This document shows positions 5,076-57,557 of a stretch of DNA of 64,000 nt, piece after piece; positions within the stretch are counted from its first letter, which is position 1; every line of letters begins with the position of its first letter. Both the position numbers and the translations under genes were made by a program. The notes under the pieces were generated by a model. The model did not search any database. It saw only the letters and a program-made list of their open reading frames with translations, and was not told where the DNA came from. This stretch comes from Eledone cirrhosa. Lineage: Eukaryota. The stretch lies in assembly GCA_964016885.1 (NCBI GenBank), contig OZ024759.1, positions 33,108,001-33,172,000 on the forward strand. Direction: 5' to 3'.

Positions 5076-5213
5076 TATCGAGTACTCTGCTGAATAATGA
5101 TATAATTCCTCCCTCCCTCCCTCTCTTTGTGCATATATATATATATATATATATATGCACAAAGAGAGGGAGGGAGGGAGGAATTATATCATTATTCAGC
5201 AGAGTACTCGATA
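5076..5213. repeat. Perfect inverted repeat (about 58-bp arms) centred on (TA)n
   Basis: ATCGAGTACTCTGCTGAATAATG...TTTGTGC-(AT)n-GCACAAA...CATTATTCAGCAGAGTACTCGAT. Confidence 0.9.
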
Positions 5214-5346
5214 CTTACGATAGGACAGAACAACATTCCTTATATGGTACAATAAATTCTGTCACATGTCAGAATTTGTGGTACCATATAAGAAGGAATC
5301 GGATAATATTCATCCACGCTCAGACGCGAGTCTACATGTTGAAACA

Positions 5347-5432
5347 TATCTGAGGAGCTTCCCATTCCAGAGTCAGGTTCTATCCTTAAAAGATCGTTTC
5401 TCGAGCTGATCGACAGTGAAACATATGTAATG
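5347..5432 (+). ncRNA. Hammerhead ribozyme, type I, with extended stem II
   Basis: UAU-CUGAGGA (5350-5356)-GCU...AGU-GAAAC (5418)-AUAU-GUA-AUG. Stem III has a palindromic loop and the cleavage triplet is GUA. Confidence 0.65.
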
Positions 5433-5526
5433 AAATATGTATATGAGGTAACACTGATTCTTTGTTCCGTTAAGTATTATTATTATTATATATATATATA
5501 TATATATATATATATATATATATATA

Positions 5527-5633
5527 ATCCCGCCGAGGTTTACTTTGCCTTTCATCCTTACGGGGTCGATAAAATAAAGTACCAGTAATGCACTGAGTAA
5601 TTTGCTGGCCTTGTGCCAAAAGTAGAAACAATT
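5527..5633 (+). mobile_element. SINE family 1 fragment between TA tracts
   Basis: SINE core and tail. Confidence 0.85.
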
Positions 5634-5683
5634 ATTATTATATATATATATATATATATATATATATATATATATATATATAT

Positions 5684-5790
5684 AAAAGATACAGGAGCGA
5701 ACACGAATCCAAACCAAACAGTGAGTGTGTTTTATTATTATTTCTGGTAATATTATAACAATATGACCCTCCCCAAATATAACAATATAT
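5684..5790 (+). mobile_element. TA-embedded element fragment homologous to the arm of the 57558-57839 palindrome
   Basis: CCAAACAGTGAGTGTG...ATGACCCTCCCCAAATATAACAATAT is shared with 57760-57839. Confidence 0.7.
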
Positions 5791-5811
5791 ATATATCATA
5801 TATATATATAT

Positions 5812-5870
5812 GAAAAGATTCAGGACCCCGACGGCTGAGCTCTGGCCGTTTCGGCAGCTTGATCCGAACT
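5812..5870 (-). mobile_element. Fragment of the 53.0/53.5-kb hairpin family (3' half of a hammerhead)
   Basis: Reverse complement reads GAAACGGCCAGAGCTCAGCCGTCGGGGTCC. Confidence 0.6.
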
Positions 5871-5900
5871 CATATCTATGTATCTATCTATATATATATA

Positions 5901-53003: not shown

Positions 53004-53163
53004 AGGAACCAGTAAGACCCCGACAGCTGAGCTCTAGCCGTCGAAACGGCTTGAGCTCAGCTGTCGGGGTCTTACTGGTTCCTATTACCCACTCTACTAC
53101 ATCAAGCATCGAGTACTTTGGTGCGTGATGGTCCACCTGGTTCCTTACCACATTTCCTTCGTT
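53004..53163 (+). mobile_element. (TA)n-flanked hairpin element, copy 1
   Basis: GGAACCAGTAAGACCCCGACAGCTGAGCTC / GAGCTCAGCTGTCGGGGTCTTACTGGTTCC; tail with ATCGAGTACT at 53108. Confidence 0.8.
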
Positions 53164-53469
53164 ATATATATATATATATATATATATATATATATATATA
53201 TATATATATATATATATATATATGTATATATATATACATCCATACATGCATATATAGATATATATAGATTCATATTTTATATATATATAACTATATATAT
53301 ATATATATATATATATATATATATATATATATACGTATCTATAGCTACATACATCATACCTTTATATTATATTTATATATACTACATGTACATCCATATA
53401 TATATATATATATATATATATATATATATATATATATATATATATATATATATATACATATATATATAT

Positions 53470-53661
53470 AGGAACGAGTAGGTCCCTGATGGCTGAGCTC
53501 AAGCCGTATCGACGGCGAATTCAGTCCAGAATTAGCCGTCGAAACAGCTTGAGCTCAGCCGTCGGCGTCCTACTCGTTCCTATTACCCACTCTACTACCC
53601 CAAGTATTGAGTACTTTGGTGCGTTATGGTCCACCAGGTTCCTTACCACATTTCCTTCGTT
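53470..53661 (+). mobile_element. (TA)n-flanked hairpin element, copy 2
   Basis: Same family with a longer loop; ATTGAGTACT at 53606. Confidence 0.8.
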
Positions 53662-55423
53662 ATATATATAATATATATATATATATATATATATATATAT
53701 ATATATATATATATATATTTACTTATAAATATATATATATACATATAAATAGGTAGGTCTCATAACGGTAGAAAAATATCTATAAATATATAAGCATCTT
53801 AGTTTATATATAACATTGGTAAACTAATCATGAAATTATCAAAGACAGAAGACCAGATAAACAAGAGACATAAAATACAAGTCTCTGTTCTTATATAAAT
53901 ACAGAGGAGAAGAATTAACAAGTAAATAAACTTGTATATCTAAGTACATGAAACATTTGATTTCAATATATTTACTGGTTTTTAGAGAAGAAATAGAATT
54001 ATCCGCCTTTGTTTATGTATATATATATGTATAAATATATATATAAATATATATATATATATACATATATATATATATATGAAAATAGGGAGAAAATGAC
54101 GATTATTAGGAAGAAAAATCTTTTTTTTTCCTTTTATTTCTTTCTCTTGTATGTTATATATATATATATATATATACACCCACACATATGCATATATAAT
54201 ATATGTTTACAAATGCACACACACACACACACACACACACACACACACACACACACACACACACACACACATATATATATATATATGTATTCACCTTTTT
54301 CTATATGCTCATAAATATTCATGACAAAAAAGTACTGTGGGAAACAAAGTTTGATATTCTGTTAGGGAAATAATTGTGATTTAAGGTCCGCGGAACTTTA
54401 ACTGCTTCTAGGGACAAAACAGTAAAGAAGAATGTGGAAGGAAAGACTGTGAGAATACAAAAGGAGAATGTTGATGGAGAGCCAGGAACAAATTATGTAA
54501 TTATATCCTCAGGCAAAGTGCTGTAAGAGTGTATGTCTGTGAGAGAGAGAACTTCTGTGTGTGTGACAGAGAGCTTTTGTGTGTTTCTGTATGTTTCTCA
54601 GTGTGTTTGTATGTCTGTCTTTCTTTGTGTGTGTGTGTTTCTGTGTGTGAGTTTGTGTCTGTGTTTGTCTATGTTTCTGTGTGTTTAAATCTGTTTGTGT
54701 GTATATTTATGTAAGTTTCTGTCTGTGTTTCTGTGTGTTTAAATTTGTTTTTGTGTATTTTTATGTATTTCTGTTTGTGAGGTTGTGTTTACTTGTGTTA
54801 CTGTGTGCGTTTCTGAGTGTGTGTATGTGTATGTGTGTGTTTGGGTGTGTGTGTGTTAGATCTCATTTTCCGTCGTCGGGTGTTCCATTTATTTAATCAA
54901 TGACAAGGCCTGCTCATGAAATTCTCGTGCAATCGGGTGGGATATGCCACAAGTAGATACACTCTTAACGTATTTCTCGGGATTCTGCAAATTCACACAC
55001 TCCTCACCTTCGTTAAACATCTGACTTACCTGTACAACTATCTTTGAAAGCTAAGGGTACTGGGAACTTCAAATATAATGTATTTCTCAAGGCCCAAAAC
55101 ACCCACTCATTGGTAATCAAATTAACCGTTAATCCACCTGCCTTCAAATCAGCCAAGTGAAGACAGGCTGAAGTTTCACACAATATACAAGCATGGCTGT
55201 GTGTGTGTGTTTGTGTGTGTGTGTGTGTGTGTGTGTGTGTGTGTGTGTGCGTGTGCGTGTGCGTGTGTGTGTATTCATTTAATGGCTAACAGGTAAAATT
55301 CCAAGGTAACAAGGTTCACCACTCCACTTTACCATTAAATGGATATTTAAACCCTACTTTGGTATTGAGTACTTTTGCACACGCCCGTCAAGGCTATATA
55401 TATTTATTAAAATAACAGATTAA

Positions 55424-55474
55424 AGTTTAAGCAAAGAATCGCTGCTTTCACCCTTAATGGGATCTTCTGAAACT
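55424..55474 (-). ncRNA. Second copy of the CAGAAGA hammerhead-fold RNA
   Basis: Minus strand: AGUUU-CAGAAGA-UCCC-AUUAA-GGGU-GAAAGCA...UGCUU-AAACU. Confidence 0.6.
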
Positions 55475-57260
55475 AGGGCTCTTATATATTTGATATACAG
55501 TATATTTATTCTTATCGAGCCCTCTTTGGATTTTAGTCTTCACATTATTATTATTACTACGTATATATATATATATATATATATATATATATATATATAT
55601 ATATATATATAGTTTCGCCTCTTTATCTTATGGTCACCATGTCTGATGAATACTAACATTTTTAAATTGTACTTCGGTATACATACATGTGTATATGTGT
55701 GTGTTGGTGGATGTGCGTGTGTGTTTATGACATAACTGCTTATCAAAATTACATTATAGAAAGTAGTGTACACATTGCCAGTACAACTGTATGTGAAACC
55801 AAATCTTAGTTTCATCTCGTGCAAACATTGTATATTTTAAGTGTACTTTCTAGACTTTAACAATTTAAACAAAAGTTCTCTAAACAAAACCTAGTATATT
55901 TTCGGAAATGTTCGCTGAACACATTGCCAAATTTAAAACCAATTTGAATTAAAGCCCATGTTGTGTGTGTACATTTACCACGATGTATATTTGCTGGGAT
56001 ATTTATAGTAATTCACTGCGTTCTTAACTTGAAATTTCATTAATTAAAAAGATGCAATATACATCTGTTGTTAATCTTGGTTACCACCTGGGAAACGTAA
56101 GAGAAACCACCTATAGAAGAGGTCAAAGAAAAATGTATATAAATTCAATTAACATGACTTGCACACACATGGGTCAGTGTAGATTTTAATTAAAACTTTA
56201 AATTAGACTCCTAGGGAGTTAAGAAAGTAAAGGTTGTCACGTTTTTCTATATTGAAATCTGCGTCTATCATGAAATCGTTTGATAATTGAAATAAAATTA
56301 ATGTTAAAATTTACATTTATGTTTCAAATACAGATTTTGTTTTTCTTTTCTACAGCTACATCTACCAAGAATTAGAAATTTTGTTGGATATTTACGTAAC
56401 ACTTGTACGGTCGCGGGGTCTCAAGTTTCCACTTATGTACTGGTGGAGATGGACGGGCAACGTGTCATAAAATATTCCAAATATTTCAGATCTAGGGCAG
56501 GGCGGTGGATTGTTATAGTCGTTAGAATGTTGTTTACATGCTTAGCAATACTTCTTCTAGTAGTTAAATTTCGGTTTTCGTTTCACTCCGAGGTCAACTT
56601 TATTTTCAGACCTCTCAAGCCTACGAATCCACCAGGGGGCACGGGACATTCTCCTATCCATGATATATATATATATATATATATATATATATATATATAC
56701 ACACACACACATATATATATATATATATAATGACGAAACATAATGACGAAACATAAGTCAATTGCATGAACTCATAATCCTTTATTTACTGCTATATATA
56801 TTTCGATGATATATATATATATATATATATATATATATATATATATATATGTGTGTGTGTGTGTGTGTGTGTGTGTGTGTGTGTGTGTGTGTTTCATATA
56901 TGAACTCATTAAGCGCTATACGTTGTCTTTGGTTTTCATTGTTCAACATGTATGTATATTTATATATGTATAAATATATGTATATATATATATATATATA
57001 TATATATATATATATATATATATATATATATATATATATAAATATATATATAAATATATATATAAATATATATATATATAAATATATATATATATATAGT
57101 GGTAGAATACTGGAAGGTAATATCCGTAGTGGTAGAGCACTCAGTCCATGGGACAATATATATATATATATATATATATATATATATATATATATATATA
57201 TATATATATATATATATATATATATATAAAAGTGGTTACACAACAATTAGTTCACCATAA

Positions 57261-57297
57261 CGAGAACATTGTTTCGCCTTAGCGGATCCTCAGCCCG
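57261..57297 (-). ncRNA. Hammerhead ribozyme (minus arm)
   Basis: CGGG-CUGAGGA-UCC-GCUAA-GGC-GAAAC-AAU-GUU-CUCG. Confidence 0.72.
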
Positions 57298-57324
57298 TAA
57301 TGGACATGGTTACACGGAACATTA

Positions 57325-57362
57325 CGAGCTGAAGATACGCTAGGGTGAAACAATTGTTCTCG
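57325..57362 (+). ncRNA. Hammerhead ribozyme (plus arm)
   Basis: CGAG-CUGAAGA-UAC-GCUAGG-GU-GAAAC-AAUU-GUU-CUCG. Confidence 0.72.
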
Positions 57363-57557
57363 GTATGGTGAACTAACTGTTGTGTAAACACTTCTACTTA
57401 ACTCGTCCCATGGACTGAGTGCTCTACCACTACGGATATTAGCTTCCACTGTTTTACCACCATATATATATATATATATATATATATATATATATATATA
57501 TATATATATATATATAGTTTTGCGAGGTTTTTTATATGAAATCGTGTGTCGAAACAG

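Follow-up and report, generated by a model that had tools for sequence, protein, structure and literature searches.

The window, which is the whole analysed stretch of 64,000 nucleotides, contains 17 sites with a decamer similar to ATYGAGYRCT, including one at 5077 and every position named in the original prediction. The consensus is exact at nine of these sites (5077, 5203, 6160, 11816, 37570, 40275, 53108, 53606, and 55364) and has one mismatch at the other eight. Box-like sites at 57136(-), 20009(-), and 20249(-) were absent from the original list. Self-BLAST and inspection place the sites in about seven families, F1 to F7 (Table 1); as had been noted, the surrounding tails do not align between families, but copies do group within them. 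The box carriers are short, truncated Penelope-like remnants, probably of the Hydra clade.

Table 1. Box sites, tails, and elements of the seven families (positions within the window).
Family	Feature	Positions	Strand	Details
F1	Box sites	5203, 11816, 37570, 53108, 53606, 5077		5077 is the perfect inverted duplicate of 5203
F1	Tail, 80 nt	53581..53660	+	Hairpin 53589-53615, 8 nt past tailless end; AC-rich loop
F1	Tail copy	53083..53162	+	Hairpin 53091-53117, one inner mismatch
F1	Related tail	11772..11842	-	Hairpin 11816-11842
F1	Related tail	37526..37595	-	Hairpin 37570-37595
F1	Related tail end with perfect inverted duplicate	5077..5212		Box 5203-5212 (minus); duplicate 5077-5132 starts exactly at box; one TA tract between; no hairpin by strict descriptor
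F2	Box site	6160
F2	Tail, 101 nt	6109..6209	+	Hairpin 6117-6169, long inner loop
F2	Second tail	19967..20069	-	Mutated box 20009-20018
F3	Box site	6482
F3	Element	6319..6536	+	Hammerhead 6319-6407 (long stem II, one core change); hairpin 6464-6491; tail end 6536
F4	Box sites	10587, 20580
F4	Tail	10546..10616	-	Hairpin 10587-10608
F4	Tail copy	20539..20609	-	Hairpin 20580-20601
F5	Box sites	11105, 36542, 50972, 55514
F5	Tail	50937..51026	-	Hairpin 50972-51020, outer pair G-C (GCUC/GAGC)
F5	Element	36425..36579	+	Decayed hammerhead-like core; tail 36497-36579; hairpin 36503-36551
F5	Fold-back copy	55404..55561	+	Box 55514
F5	Detached tail piece	11099..11143	+	Box 11105; truncated inside hairpin
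F6	Box sites	40275, 55364
F6	Box and hairpin	55356..55394	+	Minimal wobble hairpin at box 55364; TA 31 nt away; element body not seen
F6	Piece	40254..40301	-	Box 40275; TA both sides; 31 nt to TA
F7	Box site	57414
F7	Element	57229..57461	+	Inverted pLTR piece, sense pLTR with hammerhead, then tail
F7	Minimal hammerhead	57321..57364	+	Hydra-type core (against the Hydra HHR table); stem I 4 bp, stem III 4 bp
F7	Tail, 67 nt	57395..57461	+	Tailless end 57394, tailed end 57461
F7	Hairpin	57401..57423	+	1-nt bulge; 3' arm is box 57414-57423
F7	Detached tail piece	57099..57155	-	TA both sides; broken inside hairpin
	Possible further tail	20203..20258	-	Box 20249 with one mismatch; TA 56 nt away; search gave no hairpin

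The predicted usual spacing of 48–57 nt between box and (TA)n applies to ten of the 16 listed sites (48–56 nt); the rest include one at 45 nt and four at 31–39 nt, and the box at 10587 points to no more than a decayed TA patch. Measured against all eligible non-repeat positions of the window, seven of the nine exact boxes face TA at 45–58 nt (0.29 expected) and none of the nine does so in mirror orientation, which bears out the claim that the box points toward TA. With up to one mismatch, the counts are 14 of 32 (1.03 expected) and 0 of 32; in both comparisons the motif was picked after the fact and the copies are not independent.

The decamer is not the whole signal but forms the 3' arm of a bulged hairpin that is conserved. 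The hairpin has the layout RCUC, variable stem-loop, UY bulge, GAGY, and RCU, and it starts 6–10 nt past the tailless end, except in F3, where that end lies about 2 nt away unless the junction has mutated. Its inner pairs are kept in 18 of 21 cases across the seven families, each represented by one good, hand-chosen copy, compared with a shuffle mean of 12.0 (p = 5e-5) and 3–10 in slid controls. The outer pair is A-U in six families, whereas F5 and the metagenome elements have G-C, and it is swapped to C-G in Hydra-1_Crog. The perfect 7-bp stem at 55514 was left out of this evidence because its 5' arm derives from the inversion joint. ATY is not general across species because the leading A of the box, which pairs within the stem, varies (seven ATY versus four mirror RAT). 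The RCU that follows the stem is conserved and has no pairing partner. A hairpin scan of the window that was blind to TA gave 11 matches, ten of which are originally listed sites, and, with a descriptor composed after the sites were known, a hairpin was found at nine of 21 box-like words near TA versus two of 49 elsewhere (p = 1.7e-4). Six of the 18 window sites fail this descriptor; three of them are truncated, and for 5203, 55364, and 20249 truncation is not evident. When tails were folded singly by plain energy, no common fold emerged, and tRNA B boxes, splice sites, and K-turns, compared by eye, did not fit.

These pairings bear on two alternatives. The box could be common by descent or by chance in related TA-targeting repeats, without present function, and the 17 sites do represent only about seven families and a motif picked after the fact. 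However, flanks and loops are unalignable between families while pairing is retained, and this hairpin recurs in metagenome elements as well as in consensi from coral, sea cucumber, and copepod; covariation largely refutes this reading, to which we give very little credence. Alternatively, the near-palindrome GAGYRCTC could be a duplex DNA site for the GIY-YIG endonuclease that steers nicks into TA beside older copies, which would correspond to the endonuclease recognition site originally suggested. According to PMC11167929, the Drosophila virilis endonuclease is reported to have needed the tail on plasmids, the RCT beyond the stem is conserved although nothing pairs with it, and TA tracts abut the box or lie within 18 nt of it in four detached window pieces. 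Such a site nevertheless explains the covarying stem poorly: the upstream partner at 11–46 nt, the covarying inner pairs, the fixed bulge of 1–2 nt, and the G-U pairs point to a folded single strand, and the F4 and F5 boxes are not palindromic. We regard a duplex site as improbable.

Self-inverted matches revealed an adjacent inverted, 5'-truncated pLTR copy in F1, F2, F3, F4, F7, and the F5 fold-back but not in F6. Two 3' ends, one tailless and one tailed, occur in six of the seven families, and both kinds of end run into (TA)n. In raw reads of a related organism, 1161 reads place an F7 TA junction at 57396, and 614 and 1227 reads place the other at 57458/57460. A minimal hammerhead is whole in F7 and, with one core change, in F3; F2 retains the 3' half (near 5965, in the inverted pLTR), F4 has a partial one by eye, F5 a decayed one, and none is recognisable in F1 or F6. 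Rfam gave no match for the F7 hammerhead region (57300-57455), and no exact copy of the Octopus Hydra-1 hammerhead motif, as published, was found in the window. When the whole window was submitted to Rfam, microRNA model matches on TA repeats swamped the output. No pieces of a Hydra ORF were detected in the window by tblastn, and it holds ORF-less remnants only.

The Hydra clade, a group of C-terminal EN+ Penelope-like elements (Craig et al. 2021, PMC8557442), resembles the window families in its (TA)n target, its pLTRs with inverted copies, and its canonical minimal hammerhead with the same core layout. The window tails measure 67–103 nt, compared with the 30–40 bp given for other clades, and the main text of that study does not mention the hairpin. 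The Naiad clade (PMC8557442) shares (TA)n insertion, tails, and occurrence in cephalopods. It was rejected as parent, as the Naiad ends examined have no box or hairpin and that clade lacks canonical hammerheads, unlike F7 and F3. Non-LTR retrozymes (bioRxiv 10.64898/2026.07.22.740005) and PLE min-HHRs (PMC4209133) are likewise short, hammerhead-bearing, ORF-less, and pLTR-derived. Retrozymes form tandem arrays, whereas each window element is a single fold-back insertion that has two ends, and, unlike in either of these groups, the signal described here lies downstream of the ribozyme in a hairpin of its own. A non-LTR retrozyme was rejected, with no head-to-tail hammerhead array in self-BLAST or among the 150 of 202 tandem repeats listed.

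The box was also sought in autonomous Penelope-like elements and was found in tails and 5' UTRs of the Hydra clade, which supports a cis-acting signal for the mobilising enzyme, albeit one to which the decamer contributes no more than the 3' arm. Hairpin and box occur in four of six Hydra consensi in the supplement of PMC8557442 (the 5' end of Hydra-1_Obim has no clear box, and Hydra-1_Amil is ambiguous), and four of seven box 9-mers in that whole supplement lie at Hydra ends. The published consensus of Hydra-1_Ajap has twin hairpins just before the ATG. The same arrangement was found at a metagenome locus, L075, with two intact elements that are 49% identical and have the structure pLTR-ORF-pLTR, both ending at one TA tract. 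Each carries twin hairpins in tandem, with periods of 66 and 57 nt and an ATG shortly after; the tailed ends lie 8 and 6 nt before hairpin 2, at a TA-like patch, and the box-to-junction distance is 42–45 nt. Both tailed ends thus have their place relative to a hairpin that is absent from the insert, which also speaks against the duplex site. The hammerhead core is intact in one element and changed in the other. Both proteins are encoded by a short single ORF with RW[RK], DKT, a CxCX5C linker, CxxC, and CxH, each of which is kept in 109–119 of 120 homologs, and these motifs assign the elements to the Hydra clade, as judged from sequence. A Pfam scan of both proteins gave one weak, unrelated match only, and no relatives were found in prokaryote and viral contigs. 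Across metagenome loci, the hairpin faces TA in nine cases versus two in mirror orientation among 119 distinct matches that are mostly noise; eight of the nine lie 36–50 nt from TA. A minimal hammerhead lies upstream at five hairpin loci, and none of six viral loci with the same TA-plus-core pattern has the hairpin.

Related proteins number 3382. A pattern composed after the sites were known reads the box in 21 of 22 of their N-terminal extensions (controls 0.25 and 0.72), and in two of them twice, 21 codons apart. The box could be imagined as what is left of N-terminal codons conserved in the parent ORF (Ile-Glu-Tyr/Cys): the ATY variation falls at the wobble position, and the tail overlaps the ORF in some Penelope-like elements (PMC3846280, PMC11167929). 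Yet stops interrupt that frame around most window sites, the frame in which the box is read differs among relatives, with two in use, and both boxes precede the ATG in L075 and Hydra-1_Ajap. This position in the 5' UTR refutes a codon relic for Hydra elements, and we consider the idea barely credible overall.

We think it probable that twin hairpins before the ATG, each likely bound by the element protein, fix an RT start 6–10 nt upstream of themselves. The observed basis is the covariation of the hairpin, the two discrete 3' ends, the twin hairpins in intact Hydra elements, and the junctions 6–10 nt before a hairpin, at a TA-like patch; the twin arrangement is seen in L075 and Hydra-1_Ajap, and the window families are known from remnants with one hairpin. 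The GIY-YIG domain would nick (TA)n, and the nicked end would anneal by 2–5 nt to the TA-like patch, where copying would begin. An RT start before hairpin 1 would yield the tailless end, and a start before hairpin 2 would copy the linker and hairpin 1 and yield the tailed end. One RT start for each of the twin hairpins would explain the two alternative ends. The tail would be one hairpin period because each hairpin likely fixes one start, and remnants would show one box only because hairpin 2 is never copied into the tail. The distance of about 50 nt from box to TA would represent the linker between the hairpins, probably bridged by a protein dimer. More tentatively, each protomer of such a dimer may grip one hairpin and prime on the TA-like patch 6–10 nt upstream. 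If so, the twin bulged hairpins would be the start code of Penelope-like retrotransposition, and this single arrangement would account for both ends, for a tail on one side only, and for detached tail pieces that break off within hairpin 1.

One bound hairpin could instead set both ends, with one start about 8 nt upstream and the other about 45–55 nt downstream, much like the 3'-end ruler proposed originally; the second hairpin would then have a role in translation or be left over from a duplication. The box-to-junction distance (45–56 nt in most window families, 42–45 nt in L075) is indeed steadier than the tail length (57–103 nt), and in one L075 element the two hairpin units have 13 nt upstream in common, a pattern like that of a tandem duplication. 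The steady distance, however, is explained equally well if two bound hairpins are separated by a linker of fixed length, and both L075 tailed ends lie 6–8 nt from hairpin 2, which matches the offset of the tailless end to hairpin 1. We therefore favour a second hairpin beyond the tailed end over a ruler of about 50 nt, and we judge the one-hairpin explanation unlikely.

Such elements and their tails are already known, and no report of the twin hairpin was found in the literature searched. With the Poseidon element of Anolis (PAc), in vitro work showed that the tail spans the interval from one RT start to the other (Frangieh et al. 2024, PMC11167929). PAc resembles the elements described here in its AT-rich target, a stem-loop near the starts, and a predicted dimer. 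In PAc both starts fall within the ORF, in a single AC-rich stem-loop, whereas here there are two hairpins in the 5' UTR, and the junctions suggest starts just 5' of each. The PAc start site is described as non-homologous to the target, in contrast to the 2–5 nt of TA-like sequence after each junction here.

What fixes the two RT starts, and hence the tail, of Penelope-like elements is a rule that the sole in vitro study, which found two starts, did not provide; a covarying hairpin that is repeated and keeps a fixed offset to each of the ends is a candidate for it. The hairpin is also a structural tag with which ORF-less Hydra remnants, dense in this genome, can be found and classified. The hairpin module may furthermore be the minimal signal that targets insertion to (TA)n, and, should each protomer indeed grip one hairpin, about 100–150 nt would be enough for TA-targeted insertion of any upstream RNA.

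The decamer ATYGAGYRCT (the box) was described in the original prediction as pointing towards a neighbouring TA tract, usually 48-57 nt away and at 30-40 nt in a few cases. A box-like decamer is present at all 17 coordinates, exact at nine and with one mismatch at eight, and the spacing holds for most of the 16 listed sites (10 at 48-56 nt and four at 31-39 nt), the remainder being one at 45 nt and one that faces only a decayed patch. The orientation was borne out: seven of the nine exact boxes have a tract 45-58 nt downstream and none does in mirror orientation, against 0.29 expected over all eligible window positions, and with up to one mismatch 14 of 32 do so (1.03 expected over all eligible positions; mirror, 0 of 32), although these statistics exaggerate independence because the motif was defined after the sites had been seen and the sites reduce to about seven families (F1-F7). 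The window, eukaryotic and AT-rich (GC 0.30), contains 429 TA tracts of at least 10 nt, and an abundant short repeat in it resembles a cephalopod SINE.

The box very probably marks a hairpin in the tail of Penelope-like elements. In six of the seven families the copies are short fold-back insertions, with an inverted piece followed by a sense piece and then (TA)n, and each of these families has two 3' ends, either bare (tailless) or with a box-bearing extension of 67-103 nt (the tail). This matches the anatomy of pLTR, inverted copy and optional tail that PMC8557442 and PMC3846280 give for Penelope-like elements. Both F7 ends were confirmed outside the window in run X9 from a related organism, where loose ends join (TA)n at 57396 (1161 reads) and 57458/57460 (614 and 1227 reads) among the matches listed (8778 reads placed; counts from 15 listed rows, a further 230 lying beyond them); contigs from a second run, X1, are consistent with this. 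Minimal hammerheads are whole in F7 and F3 and incomplete in F2 (3' half), F4 (partial, by eye) and F5 (decayed), with a core layout like that in the Hydra-clade table of the PMC8557442 supplement. None was found in the window copies of F1 and F6, which leaves the clade of F1 uncertain. Two further hammerhead elements terminate at TA without a box (Table).

The box forms one arm of a hairpin: a complementary RCTC lies upstream of GAGY, with more pairs beyond a 2-nt UY bulge (1 nt in F7), an outer pair that is G-C in F5 and A-U in the other six families, and a loop whose length ranges from a few nucleotides to about 35. A fold scan of both strands that was blind to TA returned 11 matches, 10 at predicted sites and one in an unrelated fold-back; the descriptor, composed post hoc with the sites already known, is satisfied at 12 of 18 window sites, and three of the six failures are truncated within the hairpin. 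Where TA follows a box-like word at 30-58 nt, the hairpin is present in 9 of 21 cases, versus 2 of 49 elsewhere (p = 1.7e-4). With each family represented by a single selected copy, pairs form at 18 of 21 inner positions (shuffle mean 12.0, p = 5e-5), and sliding the partner lowers this to 3-10. F6 (31 nt), 5203, 20249 and the consensus Hydra-1_Obim fit the scheme poorly.

Positions of features in the window, and of one metagenome ORF
Feature	Position	Observation
F1 boxes	5077, 5203 (-), 11816 (-), 37570 (-), 53108, 53606	
F2 box	6160	
F3 box	6482	
F4 boxes	10587 (-), 20580 (-)	
F5 boxes	11105, 36542, 50972 (-), 55514	
F6 boxes	40275 (-), 55364	
F7 box	57414	
Duplicated tail end	5077-5212	56 nt, perfectly inverted and duplicated on the two sides of a single TA tract; from priming of both strands or from an assembly fold-back
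F1 pLTRs	53005-53082, 53471-53580, 11860-11900 (-), 5812-5862	GAAA-capped hairpin and palindromic GAGCTC at expected hammerhead 3'-half position; no canonical core in these; possibly variant or decayed ribozyme
Boxless hammerhead element	11555-11760 (-)	Related to 8365-8453; core type different
Boxless hammerhead element	37231-37410 (-)	
Hammerhead-like cores	5340-5486, 5971-6050, 6319-6407	Unusually long stem II; internal-loop motif common to three otherwise divergent elements
Large fold-backs adjoining TA tracts	27921-28280, 51150-51576, 57572-57825	First has GAGYRCTC pair near centre; sole non-tail match of hairpin scan
Tandem array	16913-17969	About 11 copies of 97 bp with 98% matches; 14364-14495 is related
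Repeat	2717-3200, 6847-7331	486 bp, 97% identical; TA tract interrupts both at same place
ORF fragment	49142-49756	Resembles RTE-type LINE end
ORF fragment	13277-13588	Resembles restriction-like endonuclease of non-LTR element
ORF fragment	44668-44900	Resembles mariner transposase
Metagenome ORF	L067:25-735 (-)	5'-truncated, Hydra-like, beside TA tract; core match inside coding sequence looks coincidental

Several autonomous Penelope-like elements, where the original prediction proposed to seek the box, carry it. Metagenome locus L075 (1-5552) holds two different whole Hydra-like elements, tail to tail on one shared (TA)n tract, whose proteins (705 and 702 aa, 49% identical) bear the Hydra diagnostics RW[RK], DKT, CxCX5C, CxxC and CxH. 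Both upstream pLTRs extend beyond the tailed end, and in both a second, like-formed hairpin lies 8 or 6 nt past that end, after a TA-like patch and shortly 5' of an ATG (hairpin periods 66 and 57 nt). Among six published Hydra consensi, examined over about 420 nt at their ends, Hydra-1_Ajap has twin hairpins 5' of the ATG, the 3' tails of Hydra-2_Amil and Hydra-2_Ajap hold a single hairpin each, and the hairpin of Hydra-1_Crog shows a compensatory C-G swap; Hydra-1_Amil is ambiguous, and Hydra-1_Obim shows no clear box there. Across the whole PMC8557442 supplement, four of seven occurrences of six box 9-mers fall at Hydra ends, a count that may miss matches across line breaks. A protein search returned 3382 relatives, and 22 of the 120 listed have an N-terminal extension that reads through the UTR. 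Among the matches listed, 21 of these 22 contain the translated box (0.25 and 0.72 in controls), although the proteins are mutually related and three gene-caller starts are the box's own TTG; in two of them it is repeated at a spacing of 21 codons.

In a metagenome scan, at least 113 loci had a TA tract 35-65 nt away from the palindromic core GAGYRCTC, the majority of them noise. The opening ATY of the box as originally proposed is barely enriched (7 versus 4 in mirror orientation among the matches listed). Among the listed matches, 119 distinct and including 6 viral loci, the hairpin faces TA in nine and is mirrored in two; eight of the nine lie 36-50 nt from TA. A minimal hammerhead precedes the hairpin in L007, L057, L074, L095 and L100, the last running on into the end of a Hydra-like ORF (E 0.005). 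When inner pairs were not required, they were present in 7 of 10 TA-near candidates versus 6 of 23 others, four of these six being in L074 and L075.

In vitro, according to PMC11167929, a Penelope-like protein reverse transcribes from two internal sites, the tail being the interval between them. At tailless and tailed junctions alike, a hairpin follows 6-10 nt downstream; the tailless end is 8 nt from it in F1 and F2, 8-10 in F4 and 6 in F5 and F7 (F3 is ambiguous), and the first 2-4 nt past this end are TA-like. We lean towards a two-start mechanism in which the element protein would bind each hairpin, and the nicked TA end would anneal to the short TA-like patch, where copying would begin. 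A start 5' of hairpin 1 would give the tailless end, and one 5' of hairpin 2 a tail whose single box lies some 50 nt from the junction. Hairpin lengths differ greatly and yet the box-junction distance is steady, which hints at constraint on the linker; a putative dimer may bridge it. Detached tail pieces (5077, 11105, 40275, 57136) stop at the box or up to 18 nt before it, which would fit copying that began at the second start and stalled at hairpin 1. None of the window families showed a second hairpin. The box region may instead act as a DNA palindrome or in strand swapping; an RCU past the stem is conserved, which the hairpin scheme does not explain.

That these elements exist, target TA and carry tails is already known. 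A literature search of openly accessible article text found no description of the tail hairpin or of twin hairpins, and the word 'hairpin' is absent from the main texts of PMC8557442, PMC4209133 and PMC3846280. The box feature is real, and the twin-hairpin signal of Hydra-clade Penelope-like elements is apparently undescribed so far. It supplies a testable rule for the tail, and L075 offers a ready ORF pair for biochemistry.
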